Source of the DNA: Minisyncoccota bacterium
Lineage (GTDB): Bacteria; Patescibacteriota; Minisyncoccia; Phycocordibacterales; DATDWN01
Length of the DNA: 64,000 nucleotides
NCBI GenBank assembly: GCA_041658985.1
Contig: JBAZZC010000002.1
Coordinates: 17,120 to 81,119, forward strand
Direction: 5' to 3'
Of the stretch, positions 4,126 to 40,510 are shown in pieces. The position numbers were made by a program, and so were the translations under genes. The notes under the pieces are model-generated. The model worked only from the letters and a program-made list of their open reading frames with translations. It did no database searches and was not told the origin of the DNA. Positions within the stretch are counted from its first letter, which is position 1, and each line of letters starts with the position of its first letter.

Positions 4126-4237
4126 ATCCAGGCACTAACTTAGTGAGATGATAACATTTCTGCTAATCATGATTGTACATCGATGAACACGTGTTAACTT
4201 TTTATATAAGTTGTACTCATTAAGTTAGTGCCTGGAT
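4126..4237 (+). repeat. Family A palindromic leader element, divergent copy A1. Terminal inverted repeats atccaggcactaacttagtgag / ctcattaagttagtgcctggat. It ends 9 nt before the ATG at 4247.
   Basis: 21-nt inverted arms with 1 mismatch. Confidence 0.6.
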
Positions 4238-4618: not shown

Positions 4619-4747
4619 ACGAGAAAATGTCAAAATAAAGCCAAAACAGTGTGGGGTTGTGACCTTGCATTGTTTTGTGTCTTAATGGTGTGGATAGTTT
4701 ACGGGTAATTACAAATGTTATATAATACATATATTAATATTAAATTA

Positions 4748-4884
4748 ATCCGCACACTAACATTGGTATTGTGTCTTCCGTTGCTACTGTAAGTTATCAA
4801 AGCAGAGTGATGGAAGATAAGGTAGTATAGATACTAAATCTAAACCAGACACAATTGCAACGATACCAATGTTAGTGTGCGGAT
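4748..4884 (+). repeat. Family A element A2: terminal inverted repeats ATCCGCACACTAACATTGGTAT / ATACCAATGTTAGTGTGCGGAT, with internal paired boxes tgtgtct/agacaca and cgttgc/gcaacg.
   Basis: 22-bp perfect terminal inverted repeats. It ends 10 nt before the ATG at 4895. Confidence 0.7.
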
Positions 4885-4894
4885 AAATAAAAAT

Positions 4895-5080: not shown

Positions 5081-5173
5081 AGACCGCTTTGTTTCTTGTG
5101 AGTAAAAAATGAATATGATAGAATACCTTAGACCTTAATTTTACTTGAAATAAGGAAAATTATTATTAACTTC

Positions 5174-5309
5174 ATCCGCACACTAACATTGGTATTGTGT
5201 CTCCTGTTGCTACTGTGAGTTATCAAACAGAGTAGTAGAAGATAAAAAGGTGTAGATACTAAACCTAAACCAGACACAATTGCAACGATACCAATGTTAG
5301 TGTGCGGAT
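5174..5309 (+). repeat. Family A element A3, near-identical to A2.
   Basis: Same terminal inverted repeats and internal boxes. It ends 15 nt before the ATG at 5325. Confidence 0.7.
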
Positions 5310-5324
5310 AAAAAAGATAAAGAT

Positions 5325-12057: not shown

Positions 12058-12108
12058 CTTTCAAATTTACGATAAGTGTGCTAATTTAAATCCAGAAAGG
12101 ACGTGATT

Positions 12109-12264
12109 ATGAGTAACCATCCCGTAGTAGTCACACTGGCTGTTCTTGCGATAGCACAGGCCATACCACTCATCGTGGTGGTTGCCCTGTCGTTTTTCCC
12201 ATGGGCAAAGAAGACACCGTCAGATTTCTTTTGTGATTTGTGGGAACTGATCACGAAAGGATGA
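12109..12264 (+). CDS. Small hydrophobic peptide, 51 aa, unannotated; GC-richer than its surroundings.
   Basis: AAAGGA SD then ATG. MSNHPVVVTLAVLAIAQAIPLIVVVALSFFPWAKKTPSDFFCDLWELITKG. Confidence 0.35.
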   Translation: MSNHPVVVTLAVLAIAQAIPLIVVVALSFFPWAKKTPSDFFCDLWELITKG

Positions 12265-12268
12265 TGAG

Positions 12269-12403
12269 ATGAAGCTGGTCTTCAGCGCCAAGAGAGCGAT
12301 TTGGCTTTTCGTCATTATCATGTTGCTCGGTTGTTGGCTGTCAACAACTGACACAATTGTGGGACAGCTCCTGCGATTGTTTATGTGGCTTGCTCTTCTC
12401 TAG
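12269..12403 (+). CDS. Second small hydrophobic peptide, 44 aa, immediately downstream.
   Basis: AAAGGAtgatgag then ATG. MKLVFSAKRAIWLFVIIMLLGCWLSTTDTIVGQLLRLFMWLALL. Confidence 0.3.
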   Translation: MKLVFSAKRAIWLFVIIMLLGCWLSTTDTIVGQLLRLFMWLALL

Positions 12404-12478
12404 ATGTTCTGTCGTCTGGGCCCTCGCATCGTGCGCGGGTTCTTTCGTTTATGTACAAAAACATGTTATAATTACGGG

Positions 12479-12883
12479 ATGAAAAAAGGATATAAAGACA
12501 ATATTGAAAAATTAACAACAGAGAATATTAGTTTCCGAAAGGTCCTCTATACTGGCGAGGAAAGTCAGCTTGTTTTAATGAACCTAATTCCTGGAGAGGA
12601 AATAGGAAGTGAAGTTCATCCTGACAACGACCAGTTTTTTAGGTTTGAATCTGGCAACGGTGATGTTAGAATAAATGACGTAGATTACTCAGTTACAGAT
12701 GGAGATGCTGTTATTGTGCCAAAAGGGGCAACTCACAATGTAATAAATACAGGCAAAGTGGCTCTGAAGTTTTACACTATATATAGTCCCGCACATCATA
12801 AAGATGGAATTGAAAGAATGACCAAAGAAGAAGCCTTGTCACAGGAAGCAGAATTTGACGGCATAACAACAGAATTAAATTAA
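12479..12883 (+). CDS. Cupin-domain protein.
   Basis: GEEIGSEVHPDNDQFFRFESGNGDVRINDVDYSVTDGDAVIVPKGATHNVINTG is the cupin_2 pattern. ATG at 12479 is preceded by a TGTTATAAT -10-like box; the longer ORF from 12404 is unlikely. Confidence 0.6.
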   Translation: MKKGYKDNIEKLTTENISFRKVLYTGEESQLVLMNLIPGEEIGSEVHPDNDQFFRFESGNGDVRINDVDYSVTDGDAVIVPKGATHNVINTGKVALKFYTIYSPAHHKDGIERMTKEEALSQEAEFDGITTELN

Positions 12884-12985
12884 CACTTGTCCAGTTAGAA
12901 GTAGACGAGGATAAATTAATAAATCTATAATTATTACTTAATTAAAGTTTCAACCAAATAAAAATAAGGTTAGACTTCTAATGGG

Positions 12986-13894
12986 ATGGAATCACAAAAT
13001 AAACCCACAGCAAAAGATTTTTTTCTAAATCTTGGAGCAATTATTGCTCTTGGTGTGTTTGTGGGAAATTTAATAAGCTTATTGTTTACAGTAATAAATA
13101 AAGCCTATCCAATAACTACAGGATATAATTATTATAGTAGTTACTCTATTAGTTTTCCGGTAGCGACTCTAATTATCGTATTTCCTTTATATATACTATT
13201 TATGTGGTTACTGGAGAGAGATTATTCTGTTTATCCTGAACAAAAACGTGGTTTTGTCAGGAGGTGGTTGACCTTCATCACTCTATTCGTGTCTGGAGGA
13301 ACACTGATTGGTGATTTGGTCACAGTTTTATATTACTTTATTGATGGTCAGGAAATGACAGCTGGTTTTATAATGAAGATTTTGTCAATTTTGGTAATTT
13401 CTTTGGCTATTTTCTTCTATTACACCTATGATTTGTTAGGAAAATCAAATAACACTTCCAGAAAAATCTGGGTTGGTGCTTCCGTACTAGTAATTTTATT
13501 GTCTATTGTGTGGGGTTTTTCAGTTTTGGGTTCTCCTAGAACACAAAGACTACTAAAGTATGATGAACAAAAAGTTAATGATTTAGCAAGTATCAGTAAT
13601 AAAATAAACACATATTATTCTCAAAAGGGAGATTTGCCAGTCGTTCTTGCTGATACGGGACTGGATTATTATGTCCCAGAGGTTGATTCCCAATCTCAGA
13701 AACCATATGAATATACTAAAACGGGAAATACAACATATAATATTTGTGCAGAGTTTAACAAGGCATCAACAGAAGGTAATCAGAGATATAAATACCCTAG
13801 TTATCTTAGTACATGGCAACATCCAGCTGGTAGATATTGTTTTAATAAGACAATAAATCCAAATCTATATTCTGAACCTATTCCTGTATACTAG
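12986..13894 (+). CDS. Membrane protein of unknown function (N-terminal 4-TM domain plus C-terminal extracytoplasmic domain).
   Basis: Hydropathy pattern only. Confidence 0.4.
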   Translation: MESQNKPTAKDFFLNLGAIIALGVFVGNLISLLFTVINKAYPITTGYNYYSSYSISFPVATLIIVFPLYILFMWLLERDYSVYPEQKRGFVRRWLTFITLFVSGGTLIGDLVTVLYYFIDGQEMTAGFIMKILSILVISLAIFFYYTYDLLGKSNNTSRKIWVGASVLVILLSIVWGFSVLGSPRTQRLLKYDEQKVNDLASISNKINTYYSQKGDLPVVLADTGLDYYVPEVDSQSQKPYEYTKTGNTTYNICAEFNKASTEGNQRYKYPSYLSTWQHPAGRYCFNKTINPNLYSEPIPVY

Positions 13895-20090: not shown

Positions 20091-20173
20091 CCAGTCCTCA
20101 CCCTCTAGCTGTCAAGAGCCCTCGCTTCGCTCAGGTCTATGACAGCACCATGCTAGAGGGTTGCGGGGTCTCT
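20091..20173 (+). repeat. Conserved ~85-nt stem-loop element, copy 1: outer stem ccctctagc/gctagaggg, inner stem TGTCA/TGACA around AGAGCCCTCGCTTCGCTCAGGTCTA, then ttgcggggtctc. Preceded by a 12-bp hairpin at 20061-20090.
   Basis: Aligns along its full length with the copies at 35396 and 39691; the outer stems covary. Confidence 0.65.
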
Positions 20174-28514: not shown

Positions 28515-28535
28515 GGCACTTTGTGAACACATTTT

Positions 28536-28669
28536 ATCCGCACACTAACTTTAGTATTATCTCTCCGGTTGCTTCTATGGTTGGTTAGATAAAGTAACAG
28601 TAAAAAATAAGTGTGAATAGTAAATCTGTGTTTGACATAATGCAACGATATTAAAGTTAGTGTGCGGAT
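28536..28669 (+). repeat. Family A element A4 (variant arms ATCCGCACACTAACTTTAGTAT / ATATTAAAGTTAGTGTGCGGAT).
   Basis: Terminal inverted repeats with compensating changes on both arms relative to A2/A3. Confidence 0.65.
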
Positions 28670-28711
28670 GAATTTGCATAAACAAACTCATTTACGTTAC
28701 AATAAGGAGGA

Positions 28712-28820
28712 AATGAATCCCGTACGAAGTTTATGTATTATCGTTGTAATGGGATGAATGTTTAATTATTAACTAATTTAAGTATAAGGTGTACATAACA
28801 CATTTACTTCGTACGGGATG
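28712..28820 (+). promoter_or_regulatory. Family B leader, copy B1: AAGGAGG SD, a 14-codon uORF (MNPVRSLCIIVVMG, 28713-28757), and a long hairpin whose 3' arm (acttcgtacgggAUGa) contains the start codon of the gene at 28818.
   Basis: 14-bp perfect complementarity between uORF codons 2-6 (AAUCCCGUACGAAGU) and the region including the downstream AUG. Confidence 0.55.
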
Positions 28821-30197
28821 AAAAAAAAGATTGTTCAAGATGTTATTCCTCCTAAAAAAACTATTCGCAATGTAGAATTGTTGTATAGAGCAAAACGTTC
28901 CGAGAAAATACCCAAAGAGGTAGTAAAACAAAATATTCCAGTTATACCAGAAGTTTCCGAATCAAATTCAACATCAAACACCGAAACCTTTTCCGAAACT
29001 GAAAATTTTTCTTATAAATATGAGTACGATGAACCGGTAAGACATTCAAAAAAAATCTTGTATGTTTCTGTTGTCTTGTTTGTCCTGGCCTTATCTTTTG
29101 GTATATCAGCATTATTTAAAAGTGCAGAAATACGCATTATACCCAGGAGTGAGATTAGCTCTATAGATGAGAATTTTAAAGCCCTAAAAAATCTTTCGAC
29201 AAACGGCTTAGGTTTTCAGACCGTGACAACCACAAAAGATATTGAAAAGACAGTATCGGCAACAGACGAAGAACAAGTTGAAAAGAAGGCCATTGGCAAA
29301 ATTGTTGTTTATAATAATTATAGTGTTCAACCACAGGCACTAGTAAAGACAACAAGATTTGAAACCCCAGATGGGCTTGTCTTTCGGACAGTAGAGGACA
29401 TAACTGTCCCGGGGATACAAATCAAGAGTGATAAGGCTGTTGCTGGAAGCATAGAGGTTGGAGTAGAAGCAGATAAGCCCGGACCAAAATATAATATTGG
29501 GTTGAAAGATTTTTCTATTGCCGGTTTCAAGGGTACTCCAAAATATACAAAGATTTATGGTAGGTCAAGAACAGAAATGTCTGGCGGTTTTGTGGGAACA
29601 CAAAAGACCGTAAGTAAGGAAACTATAAATAAAATTGATGAAGAAATAAAGGAACTTCTAAAAACTTCTCTTTCAAAAGATATTATTTCGCAGATACCAG
29701 AAAATTTTGTGTTATACCAAAACAGTACTTCCTTTAAATTTGAACCAATTACTCAAATCAATGTCACCACAGAGGAGAGTGGTACTACAAACACAATAAT
29801 TTTAAAGAAAAAAGGTTCTATAAGTGCCATTATCTTTGATAAAGGTTCTCTTTCTAGGGCAATAGTTAGTAAGATTTTACCTGATGTGGCAAGTGATATA
29901 ATTAAAATAACCAATCTTGAGAGTTTAAATTTTACTTTTCAATCAGAAACTCAATTTAATCCAAATACTGATACTTTTCTTAATTTTAACCTAAAAGGAG
30001 AAGCTAATTTCCAATGGGTTTTTGACGAAAATAAACTCAAATTTGAGCTCTTAGGAATGTCAAAAAATAATGCAATAACTATAATCAGTAAATACGACAC
30101 AATAAAAGAAGCAAAAATTGAAACCCATCCTTTCTGGAATAAGACCATTCCAAAAGATTCTAATAAAGTTACACTTATAAACACTCTGGCAAAATAA
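28818..30197 (+). CDS. Hypothetical secreted/membrane-anchored protein, 459 aa.
   Basis: ORF with a TM helix near residues 80-100; no recognised motif. Confidence 0.4.
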   Translation: MKKKIVQDVIPPKKTIRNVELLYRAKRSEKIPKEVVKQNIPVIPEVSESNSTSNTETFSETENFSYKYEYDEPVRHSKKILYVSVVLFVLALSFGISALFKSAEIRIIPRSEISSIDENFKALKNLSTNGLGFQTVTTTKDIEKTVSATDEEQVEKKAIGKIVVYNNYSVQPQALVKTTRFETPDGLVFRTVEDITVPGIQIKSDKAVAGSIEVGVEADKPGPKYNIGLKDFSIAGFKGTPKYTKIYGRSRTEMSGGFVGTQKTVSKETINKIDEEIKELLKTSLSKDIISQIPENFVLYQNSTSFKFEPITQINVTTEESGTTNTIILKKKGSISAIIFDKGSLSRAIVSKILPDVASDIIKITNLESLNFTFQSETQFNPNTDTFLNFNLKGEANFQWVFDENKLKFELLGMSKNNAITIISKYDTIKEAKIETHPFWNKTIPKDSNKVTLINTLAK

Positions 30198-30758: not shown

Positions 30759-30799
30759 CGAAATAGCCAATGTTCTGCTACTATGTAGCTCGTTGATTA

Positions 30800-30937
30800 A
30801 TCCGAACACCAACTTTAGTATTGTGTCTTCCGTTGCTTCTTTTTATAAGTAATTAGCGGATTCAGTCAAGGTATAGATTTGGTTAGTAAATCTATATTTT
30901 GGACACAGTGCAACGATACTAAAGTTGGTGTTCGGAT
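30800..30937 (+). repeat. Family A element A5 (variant arms ATCCGAACACCAACTTTAGTAT / ATACTAAAGTTGGTGTTCGGAT); ends 9 nt before the infA ATG.
   Basis: Terminal inverted repeats with double compensatory changes. Confidence 0.65.
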
Positions 30938-30946
30938 AAAATTGTA

Positions 30947-31168
30947 ATGCAAGACAAAAATAAAAAAGATACTAGTACATCTGGGGTGGTTGTTGAATCC
31001 TTACCTAACGCTTTTTTTAAGGTAAGGAGGGATGATACTGGAGAAGAGTTATTGACCTATCTTTCCGGTAAAATGAGGCTTCACAGGATTAGGGTCTTGA
31101 TAGGAGACAAGGTAATAGTTGAGATAGATCCTTATGGAGGTAAGGGGAGGATAGTCAAAAGAGTTTAA
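30947..31168 (+). CDS. infA: Translation initiation factor IF-1.
   Basis: GVVVESLPNAFFKVRRDDTGEELLTYLSGKMRLHRIRVLIGDKVIVEIDPYGGKGRIVKR. Confidence 0.9.
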   Translation: MQDKNKKDTSTSGVVVESLPNAFFKVRRDDTGEELLTYLSGKMRLHRIRVLIGDKVIVEIDPYGGKGRIVKRV

Positions 31169-31171
31169 CAA

Positions 31172-31279
31172 AATGAATCCCGTACGAAGTTTATGTATAT
31201 AGTCGTAAAGGGATAGGGGTTTAATTATTAGTTAATTCAAGTATAGAGTGTAGAAACACATTTACTTCGTAACGGGATG
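31172..31279 (+). promoter_or_regulatory. Family B leader, copy B2: a 9-codon uORF (MNPVRSLCI, 31173-31202) begins 5 nt after the infA stop. The hairpin 3' arm (acttcgtaacgggAUGa) contains the rpmJ start codon.
   Basis: Same architecture and near-identical sequence to B1. Confidence 0.55.
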
Positions 31280-31393
31280 AAAGTAAAATCATCAGTAAAA
31301 AAGATTTGTTCCCAGTGTAAAGTAGTCCGCAGAAAGGGCTATGTGTATGTAATATGTAAGGCTAACGCTCGACACAAACAGCGTCAAGGATAG
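31277..31393 (+). CDS. rpmJ: Ribosomal protein L36 (not in the supplied ORF track).
   Basis: [38 protein letters not shown], 38 aa. Confidence 0.85.
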
Positions 31394-31467
31394 ACAAACT
31401 AGGGACTAGTTTCTAGGTTTTAGAAAAAACCTAAAGACTAGAACCTAACAACTAATCACTAATTTAT

Positions 31468-32278: not shown

Positions 32279-32393
32279 GTGTTAGGTGCTAGTTGCTAGG
32301 TTATAGCTTCTAGGATAATACGAAAAATCAAAAAACATAAAAAATTAATAAAAATACTAATTACTAAAACCTAAAAACTAGTCACTAATTCAT

Positions 32394-35528: not shown

Positions 35529-35587
35529 ATTAAGAAGTCTGTAGTTAAGCATGTAATTACTTATATCATATGTCATAACCGATATAT

Positions 35588-35615
35588 AATTTGGTACAAT
35601 ATATTGTACCAAATT
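35588..35615. repeat. 28-bp perfect palindrome AATTTGGTACAATA|TATTGTACCAAATT; a second copy lies at 36116-36143.
   Basis: Read directly; central ATAT. Confidence 0.75.
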
Positions 35616-35642
35616 AACAATAAGGTTAAGATAATTTAGAAT

Positions 35643-35673
35643 AGGAAAACCGCCAGTCGTGCTGGGCTGGCGG
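35643..35673 (-). terminator. Minus-strand intrinsic terminator CCGCCAG-cccagcacga-CUGGCGG followed by UUUUCC, serving the small ORF 35704..35955.
   Basis: 7-bp GC stem plus a T-run on the minus strand; near-identical copy at 36172-36204. Confidence 0.6.
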
Positions 35674-35703
35674 AATTCCGCACAGCGCCACGATGGCGGT
35701 GTG

Positions 35704-35955: not shown

Positions 35956-36115
35956 TACACACCTTCTTTCCTCATATAAAATATCATTTTCAAATCCATT
36001 GTCAACTAATTTTGAGTATTTAAAATTTCATATTAAACCATATTTCAATCTATGTTATAGCATAGATTATACAATCTACCACATTATAAGTAGTGAATTT
36101 AATTTAGTTGGATAT

Positions 36116-36143
36116 AATTTGGTACAGTATATTGTACCAAATT
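36116..36143. repeat. Second copy of the 28-bp palindrome (AATTTGGTACAGTATATTGTACCAAATT, 1 mismatch).
   Basis: Read directly. Confidence 0.75.
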
Positions 36144-36171
36144 GAAATCATATATAAATAATTTTGGCATA

Positions 36172-36204
36172 GGAAAAACCGCCAGTCGTGCTGGGCTGGC
36201 GGAA
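36172..36204 (-). terminator. Minus-strand intrinsic terminator, duplicate of the one at 35643-35673.
   Basis: Same CCGCCAG...CUGGCGG stem plus T-run. Confidence 0.6.
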
Positions 36205-36234
36205 TTCCGCACAGCGCCACGATGGCGGTTGTTG

Positions 36235-39775: not shown

Positions 39776-39825
39776 GGGGTATTATTCTAAAAACTATTTT
39801 AGAGAGTGAGAAATGATAAATACGC

Positions 39826-39870
39826 AAAAACCCACCAACGAAAGTAGACTAGTGCGTCCGATCCCAGATG
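39826..39870 (-). terminator. Minus-strand terminator (degenerate copy of the CCCACCAAC...GUUGGUGGG UUUUUGCG hairpin).
   Basis: One of three near-identical about 45-nt sequences (39826, 40113, 40462), each after a small minus-strand ORF. Confidence 0.5.
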
Positions 39871-40048: not shown

Positions 40049-40112
40049 GATATTACCTCCTCTTAGGATAATAAAATATATTGATAATATAGCCAAGTGC
40101 AATAATTAAAAA

Positions 40113-40165
40113 AACGCAAAAACCCACCAACGAAAGTGGACTAGTGCGTCCAGTGCTGGTGGGGC
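40113..40165 (-). terminator. Minus-strand intrinsic terminator CCCCACCAGC...GUUGGUGGG followed by UUUUUGCG.
   Basis: 9-bp stem (1 G:U) plus T5. Confidence 0.65.
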
Positions 40166-40409: not shown

Positions 40410-40461
40410 GGAACTGTCCTCCTGGTACTGATAATACATTAGAAATAATGAATGTCAATTA

Positions 40462-40510
40462 CGCAAAAACCCACCAACGAAAGTGGACATTTGCGTCCGT
40501 GTTGGTGGGG
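40462..40510 (-). terminator. Minus-strand intrinsic terminator CCCCACCAAC-loop-GUUGGUGGG followed by UUUUUGCG.
   Basis: Perfect 9-10-bp stem plus T5. Confidence 0.7.

Follow-up and report, generated by a model that had tools for sequence, protein, structure and literature searches.

The Correia (NEMIS) elements of Neisseria and the ERIC/YPAL elements are non-coding insertions of about 100 bp, whose terminal inverted repeats fold as a long hairpin in the mRNA. They duplicate a short target site, occur in many copies, are present at a site in some genomes with the site empty in others, and are co-transcribed with neighbouring genes. Family B, the subject of this study, is like them in these respects. 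Two of its copies, B1 and B2, lie in a 64,000-nt stretch of DNA (hereafter the window) from a Minisyncoccota bacterium (assembly GCA_041658985.1, contig JBAZZC010000002.1, positions 17,120 to 81,119 of the forward strand; coordinates below count from the first letter of the window). [quoted passage not shown]

The comparison with known mobile elements also reveals clear differences. Correia elements duplicate TA and are located at varied intergenic positions, whereas family B duplicates (A)TGNN, regenerates a start codon, and is found almost only at start codons and in one orientation. Against the features by which Correia/NEMIS elements are recognised, i.e., the TA duplication, 26-bp terminal inverted repeats, a binding site for integration host factor, and cleavage by RNase III, the duplication in family B is different and the sequence of its terminal repeats is unrelated. 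It has the structural characteristics of a MITE except for a known transposase, and start codons go unmentioned in a 2024 review of MITEs in prokaryotes (PMC10969869). The Rickettsia palindromic elements (RPEs) are comparable in that they are small palindromic mobile elements of reduced genomes, which survive in genes through a design compatible with expression. However, RPEs are inserted in frame and translated within the protein, whereas family B is located between two copies of a start codon and outside the protein, because stops interrupt it and the distances between the two copies are not kept in frame. Its target, orientation bias, and conservation set family B apart from Correia, ERIC, and RPE, with orthologous copies being under purifying selection.

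Other parallels come from translation. In genes 38 and 25 of T4, which have split ribosome-binding sites, a hairpin between the Shine-Dalgarno (SD)-like sequence and the AUG shortens the effective spacing. Those hairpins are about 20 nt long, are not mobile, and lack a duplicated start codon; the likeness of family B, at whose sites an SD-like motif is overrepresented 7-9 nt from the base of the stem, is one of geometry only. The same is true of translational bypassing. In T4 gene 60 and in the byps of Magnusiomyces mitochondria, gaps of 27-55 nt are bypassed during elongation by peptidyl-tRNA, and the byps are mobile inserts that have identical take-off and landing codons and a stem-loop right after take-off, and are neutralised at translation; in family B, the matched AUG/AUG pair is some 80-130 nt apart and the event concerns initiation. 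The third parallel is termination-reinitiation coupling through an upstream open reading frame (uORF), to which a sister clade of the window copies has a clear likeness, as its uORF begins by an upstream stop and ends 4 nt before the AUG. In contrast to such systems, the uORF of family B is derived from the insertion, lacks a conserved peptide, and in the window copies stops far upstream of the true AUG.

Family B at start codons

The preliminary description of the window had reported two copies of a short uORF that pairs with a downstream start codon, and both are present as described, with uORF codons 2-6 pairing with the segment that holds the real start codon. All features given below are on the forward strand. 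The B1 element proper (T-CCCGT...ACGGG-A; 28718-28818; 83 bits) is a palindrome inserted into the start codon of a gene for a 459-aa protein (28818-30197). Its 5' arm ATCCCGTACGAAGT (28717-28730), equivalent to the apparent codons 2-6, forms a 14-bp stem with the 3' arm ACTTCGTACGGGAT (28806-28819), which includes the A and T of the true start codon. That codon, regenerated by the insertion, is at 28818-28820, and the N-termini of the orthologues align from here. The relic start codon, referred to as ATG1, is at 28713-28715, 105 nt upstream of the gene's own ATG, and opens an accidental uORF, MNPVRSLCIIVVMG, of 14 codons with a TGA stop (28713-28757). The duplicated target, TGAA, is at 28714-28717 and 28819-28822. 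Within B1, the segment 28749-28760 holds GGGATGAATG, a near-copy of the 3' junction GGGATGAA, in which the TGA of the uORF overlaps a second ATG that opens a 4-codon ORF; this arrangement is not conserved in B2 or other copies.

B2 (31178-31277; 72 bits) is located in the start codon of rpmJ, which encodes ribosomal protein L36, between infA (30947-31168) and rpmJ (31277-31393). Its ATG1 (31173-31175) adjoins the infA stop (31166-31168), as noted before, but the gap is 4 nt and not 5, and the true rpmJ start codon (31277-31279) follows 104 nt after ATG1. The arms are ATCCCGTACGAAGT (31177-31190) and ACTTCGTAACGGGAT (31264-31278). The duplex was thought to be perfect over 14 bp in both copies; it is so in B1, but has a one-base bulge in B2. 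The B2 uORF, MNPVRSLCI, has 9 codons and a TAG stop (31173-31202). B1 and B2 are about 84-90% identical across about 108 nt, and their predicted hairpins have free energies of -33.8 kcal/mol (z = -4.6 vs shuffled controls) and -26.7 kcal/mol (z = -3.2), respectively. The two uORFs, of 14 and 9 codons, are identical only where the stem forces identity. In L113 (ENA ERZ27249449, contig k141_991391, 236 kb), which is apparently the contig of the window itself, the public gene calls between positions 4222 and 4522 of the locus omit the rpmJ gene behind B2 (38 aa).

A third, decayed copy, B3 (12887-12988), was detected by a covariance model (35.7 bits, E = 1.3e-4, match at 12890-12988). It consists of a relic TTG (12887-12889), T-CCAGTTAGAAGT (12890-12902), ACTTCTAATGGG-A (12974-12986), and the ATG (12986-12988) that opens a gene for a 302-aa protein (12986-13894).

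More copies were found by scanning species-representative genomes (one per prokaryotic species) with a pattern made of the two arms only, the flanks being excluded. This gave 32 stretches (L001-L032), about 27 of which are true copies, in Nomurabacteria, Zambryskibacteria, Yanofskybacteria, and other Patescibacteria metagenome-assembled genomes (MAGs), with up to 5 copies per MAG and at least 5 in MAG CAZENF01. Although the flanks were outside the pattern, nearly all copies read (A/G/T)TGRAT-CCCGT...ACGGG-ATGRA, and the family as a whole has the consensus form NTGNN-T-CCCGT...ACGGG-A-TGNN. As arms and flanks recur together in about 27 true copies, the B1/B2 pattern is far beyond chance. In every true copy, the 3' ATG opens a real ORF; the genes include rpmJ, rpmH, ssb, hpf, typA (twice), proS, a DUF1211 channel (twice), and genes for secreted proteins, among others. 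All of the approximately 47 catalogued copies are in sense orientation at the start codon of a real ORF.

The location at start codons is equally evident in loci that were chosen without regard to the element. In 80 metagenome loci (278 kb) picked only for encoding IF-1, a covariance model of the outer stem (R1) found 17 elements, of which 16 are at start codons in sense orientation; the genes concerned are infA, rpmJ, rpsM, rpsD, and the orthologue of gene 28818. The preliminary description had suggested a search for further copies next to an ATG, and this search has indeed revealed a large family. A few relatives whose outermost pair is C/G rather than T/A are located elsewhere (L112, L085, L006, L030, L022, and L032). 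Only the variant that ends in A, and thereby completes an ATG, is found at start codons. In the window, the covariance model finds three copies among about 60 genes, and from this and the IF-1 loci we estimate that roughly 3-5% of start codons are occupied. In some genomes, three genes of a single ribosomal-protein region have elements at their starts. In L057, the consecutive genes infA, rpmJ, and rpsM each carry their own (301-377, 643-724, and 848-923), and in L083 the same is true of the 28818 orthologue, infA, and rpsM (994-1069, 2424-2500, and 5129-5204); the interiors of these elements are unrelated to one another, but conserved across genomes.

The elements are 69-127 nt long and contain only short, interrupted ORFs. 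A scan of viral contigs with the arms gave no hits. At gathering thresholds, Rfam has no family for the element and matches only tRNA elsewhere in the window; at E <= 10, the element gives only chance matches to hairpins and none to a ribozyme or intron family. No description was found in the literature searched, in agreement with the earlier remark that the element was not a recognised one.

Filled and empty orthologous sites reveal how the second start codon arose. At the infA-rpmJ junction, the window has TAACAAAATGAA-T...ACGGG-ATGAAA, whereas L033 is empty (TAGAAAACATGAAA), as is L034, in which the genes overlap (ATGA). The rpmJ start is filled in L057 and empty in L082 and L055 (a single ATGAAA), with the same promoter-like sequence upstream. 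At the start of gene 28818, the window is filled and L033 is empty, reading TACAAT-AATATATAGT-ATGAAAAGA, with TTGCAT...TACAAT upstream in both; conversely, L001 has a copy at the rplQ start, where the site in the window is empty. Empty sites have one ATGAA and filled sites two, which identifies the ATG of the uORF as a relic of target-site duplication, and not the start of a dedicated leader as had been proposed.

The duplication is also visible within the family, as the left flank covaries with the right flank (ATGAA, ATGGA, ATGAG, ATGC, ATGG, and ATGTA). In three copies, the left-hand codon is GTG or TTG and the right-hand one is ATG. This is consistent with the element being T-CCCGT...ACGGG-A, its final A supplying the first base of the new ATG, and with TGNN being a duplication of 4 bp. 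The duplication is thus 4 or 5 bp long (5 bp with subsequent mutation being possible), and a few copies are one base short. An alternative delimitation of the element as AT...AT with a 2-bp duplication was ruled out by the left flanks ATGAGT, ATGCT, and ATGGT. The terminal inverted repeats form a 13-14-bp stem, the outermost T-CCCGT/ACGGG-A of which is invariant in 43 aligned copies. Occupancy is patchy among relatives, remnants consisting of the 3' arm only are present in L093 and L044, and L003 and L007, which come from one MAG and precede unrelated genes, are nearly identical (alignment score 165 vs a self-score of 168), indicating recent movement.

Conservation and orientation of the element

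Copies at orthologous sites are strongly conserved. B2 shares 91% identity, and the bulge, with its orthologue in L001, compared with 50% identity at four-fold degenerate sites in the adjoining ribosomal protein genes; other intergenic spacers cannot be aligned. The copies at the infA start in L057, L072, and L083 have interiors that are 85-89% identical, compared with 33-53% at four-fold sites, and the interiors of those at the rpsM start in L055, L057, and L083 are 81-85% identical. Over all orthologous sets, the elements are 81-91% and the four-fold sites of flanking genes, which are saturated, 33-54% identical. In contrast, the identity of paralogous copies in the same genome (0.48-0.60) is at the random level (0.51 after shuffling). 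The orthologous copies have therefore been inherited vertically and are constrained at the nucleotide level, and it is noteworthy that the third positions of the uORF are conserved as well.

No subfamily departs from the others at stem positions 1-5 and 8-9, which are invariant, while covariation is seen at positions 6, 7, and 10-12. RNAalifold supports this outer stem only, so a conserved fold of the interior was rejected. The interior has the same orientation relative to the gene in 14 of 14 copies of subfamily I and 6 of 6 of subfamily II, which, given that the ends are symmetric, points to selection on orientation. A search for interiors in both orientations gave only one weak case (L008; score 58 vs a shuffled maximum of 39), and the 20 clear cases all agree. 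Folds of the sense strand contain more G-U pairs (130 vs 73), and in 29 of 43 copies they have the greater stability (p = 0.024), whereas the 76-nt type has the opposite strand bias.

Initiation beside the hairpin

The genome of the window has almost no SD motifs. Across the window and L001-L112, SD-like motifs are rare, and -10-like TANNNT boxes are enriched 6-9 nt 5' of ordinary start codons, which suggests that leaderless mRNAs, or mRNAs with very short leaders, are the rule in these Parcubacteria. Such boxes are present 6-10 nt before ATG1 in 55% of the element sites, so ATG1 is often close to the 5' end of the mRNA. Upstream of B1, the sequence TTGCAT-18 nt-TACAAT (28674-28703), also present in the empty orthologue L033, resembles a promoter by consensus only, and would leave a very short leader before ATG1; a stricter promoter scan did not report it. 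The infA-start element of L057/L072/L083 contains one conserved candidate for an internal promoter directed towards the gene, but B1 and B2 yielded none. Direct reading of the 3' arm also showed no -10 box that would make the regenerated start codon (AUG2 in the mRNA) leaderless.

Element sites differ from ordinary starts in a further respect. GGA, GAG, or AGG is found within 7 nt before ATG1 at 18 of 36 element sites, but at only 36 of 333 control starts (Fisher p = 8e-8). In most cases, the closest GG precedes ATG1 by 1-3 nt, a distance too short for use by that codon, and is 7-9 nt from the stem base. The AAGGAGG of B1 (28704-28710) is an example. It is present, as the preliminary description stated, but with only 2 nt between it and ATG1 it is not at canonical spacing and is too close to act as the SD sequence of the uORF; with the hairpin looped out, it would be 8 nt from the stem and the true ATG. 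The empty orthologues of B1 and of the rplQ copy in L001 lack the motif. The 3' end of the element, GUACGGGAUGA, presumably bears some resemblance to a CsrA site, but its GGA is inside the stem, and this idea was set aside.

In 47 copies, ATG1 is ATG in 38 and GTG or TTG in 3, and is lost with the stem intact in 6, including L067, where it is ACG in front of the essential rpsM and the pairing is kept. Copies with a broken frame and retained pairing had been named beforehand as evidence against a functional uORF. In the window subfamily, the uORFs have 8-35 codons (8-22 except in L031, which has 35) and scattered stops, mostly in an AT-rich apical block that has stops in three frames; the stops are 37-84 nt 5' of the real AUG, except in L031, where the stop overlaps AUG2. 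The shared peptide MNPVRS is merely the translation of the conserved arm, and beyond the stem there is no peptide conservation. In the sister clade (L048, L055, L057, L072, and L083), however, the uORF is open through the whole hairpin and ends with a UAA within the 3' arm (UAACGGGAUG), at position -7, 4 nt before AUG2. These are five independent elements, with distances of 82, 82, 85, 88, and 127 nt between the two start codons; the two distances of 82 nt are composed differently, i.e., a 5-nt flank plus a 77-nt element and a 6-nt flank plus a 76-nt element. The joint probability of this stop placement by chance is about 8e-7. At sister-clade loci, the TAG of rpmJ abuts ATG1 of the rpsM element, which is a geometry suited to coupling. 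Thus, the idea of a coupling switch is apparently borne out by selection on the uORF in the sister clade, but is unsupported for the window copies, which have no relay uORF.

How does a gene tolerate such an insertion? In the explanation that we favour, a mobile element that loops out at the start codon, insertion duplicates the (A)TGNN of the start codon, and the terminal A of the element together with the duplicated TG regenerates a 3' ATG, which becomes the real start. The original ATG is left at the 5' end and opens an accidental short ORF, the first codons of which are the 5' arm. The 13-14-bp terminal stem joins the two copies of the start codon. The inserted segment of about 100 nt would be looped out, and the regenerated AUG would then stand where the old one had stood with respect to the upstream signals, which would be the SD-like motif for B1 and the stop codon of infA for B2. 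Melting of the stem by ribosomes that arrive from ATG1 or from the preceding gene may be of help. A hairpin in front of an essential gene presumably could not decay without loss of expression, and this cost would explain why orthologous copies are conserved.

Several observations weigh against this explanation. The ribosome may clash with a helix whose end is at position -1 of the AUG. About half of Parcubacteria have been reported to lack the anti-SD sequence (PMC9297842), so the SD-like motif may not act as such. The unpaired interiors are conserved at all codon positions and have no consensus structure, which a purely structural role in looping out does not explain. The retention of ATG1 in 38 of 47 copies, together with the fact that 4 of 7 single-base variants (B3, outside the 47, included) are still GTG or TTG, hints that ATG1 is useful. 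The sister-clade uORF, which is clearly selected, appears to relay translational coupling through the insert. Mobility is deduced from footprints only; in 575 kb of collected sequence, ends spaced at most 4 kb from each other were never seen to flank a gene and belonged only to neighbouring small copies, and no autonomous element or transposase with these ends was found. Moreover, a TGNN target of 4-5 bp is very common, and sequence preference alone cannot explain the nearly exclusive location at start codons.

A bolder proposal is one that we offer only tentatively. Family B may be a set of start-codon-homing modules, present in about 5% of the genes of many Parcubacteria and kept by selection, whose insertion machinery recognises functional starts (ATG, GTG, and TTG) rather than a DNA word, and which depend on an undescribed mode of initiation. 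This mode could involve an AUG at the base of a looped-out hairpin of about 100 nt, a relay uORF, or a factor that recognises the U-CCCGU/ACGGG-A stem base.

It is also conceivable, but in our view unlikely, that the uORF generally unmasks AUG2. Translation would start at ATG1 in its native context, i.e., at a leaderless-type 5' end or after an upstream stop, the 5' arm would be unwound, and AUG2 would be used by reinitiation or by a second ribosome. The open uORFs of the sister clade, the rpmJ TAG next to ATG1, the -10-like boxes before ATG1, and the retention of ATG1 described above are all consistent with this. However, in the window subfamily the early stops mean that the stem can re-form behind the ribosome, and the six copies that lost ATG1 have intact stems. 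Furthermore, a stable hairpin 4-5 nt past ATG1 should block loading at ATG1, except during transcription, and the G-rich motif is badly placed for that codon.

An improbable explanation is that family B has been domesticated as a cis-regulatory RNA or DNA module, with its mobile origin being no more than history. The stem base (U-CCCGU..GA / UC..ACGGG-A) and the interiors would bind a putative trans factor, either a protein or an RNA. The invariant and covarying stem positions, the conservation of unpaired interiors at the nucleotide level in orthologues, the fixed orientation of the interior, and the more stable, G-U-richer folds of the sense strand are in line with such a module, but recognition by a transposase predicts invariant outer ends equally well. 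In addition, occupancy is patchy even in close relatives, the genes concerned are functionally unrelated, the short 76-nt type has the opposite strand bias, and no candidate factor was identified.

Finally, it is very improbable that the hairpin is neutralised at the RNA level, by a double-strand-specific nuclease of the RNase III type or by excision, to leave a short unstructured leader or a 5'-terminal AUG2, because the short elements have a stem of 13-14 bp only, the selected uORF frame of the sister clade indicates that the mRNA still contains the element when it is translated, and no ribozyme or intron family matches, even though the 95-130-nt subfamilies have near-perfect stems of at least about 22 bp, Correia MITE hairpins in mRNAs are cleaved by RNase III (PMC10969869), leaderless-type promoters are common in these genomes and such an outcome would suit organisms with leaderless mRNAs, and symmetric excision between the duplicated ATGNN would restore the native mRNA.

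Other repeats and biological significance

The window contains other repeats, some of them close to family B. Family A consists of hairpins of about 150 nt, ATCCGCACACTAAC...GTTAGTGTGCGGAT, at 4733-4890, 5159-5315, 28521-28673, and 30785-30941, with a related sequence at 4128-4235; one copy is 40 nt upstream of B1 and another just upstream of infA. We considered whether it is the same element, as it has similar ATCC...GGAT ends, but rejected this because its flanks extend the palindrome (TTTAT/ATAAA) and no start codon is duplicated. In Rfam, family A gives only chance matches to models of miRNA precursors. Upstream of B3, a GC-rich stretch (12103-12481; 45-53% GC vs about 30% nearby) contains two small hydrophobic ORFs, 12103-12264 (53 aa) and 12269-12403 (44 aa), and is bounded by CATCCCGT (12118-12125) and ACGGGATG (12474-12481). 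The ATG at 12479 in ACGGGATG is the likely true start of a cupin-like gene listed from 12404. This stretch could be a longer, cargo-carrying relative of family B.

Directly before the ATG codons of rpsM and rpsD lies the motif AACCTAA(C/A)AACTA(A/G)TCACTAATT(T/C)AT (31440-31467 and 32366-32393), with spacers of 74 and 115 nt in the window vs 16 nt in L001. Two GC-rich 55-nt segments, AAAACCGCCAGTCGTGCTGGGCTGGCGGAATTCCGCACAGCGCCACGATGGCGGT (35646-35700 and 36175-36229), are 100% identical and 529 nt apart, with AT-rich palindromic blocks that resemble each other in front of them (35584-35649 and 36112-36177); they have no Rfam match at gathering threshold. A 48-nt repeat (…ACGCAAAAACCCACCAACGAAAGTGGAC..TGCGTCC) is present in three copies about 300-350 nt apart (39812-39859, 40104-40151, and 40451-40498), and a 105-nt repeat family also has three copies, at 20095, 35398, and 39694.

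The presence of family B has practical consequences for annotation, as a duplicated ATG together with a hairpin can mislead gene callers about start codons and small genes, the uncalled rpmJ being an example. From a mechanistic point of view, the family offers a testable system for non-canonical initiation and for termination-reinitiation relays. If our interpretation is correct, family B would be the first family of bacterial mobile elements that is essentially confined to start codons, and would represent a strategy by which selfish DNA persists in extremely compact genomes, the start codon being regenerated and the element folded away. In these tiny groundwater bacteria, it is conserved in front of the essential genes rpmJ, rpsM, infA, rpmH, ssb, and proS. 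As the element is kept there, these organisms, which have reduced ribosomes, few SD sequences, and many leaderless mRNAs, must be able to start translation efficiently beside a hairpin of very high stability.

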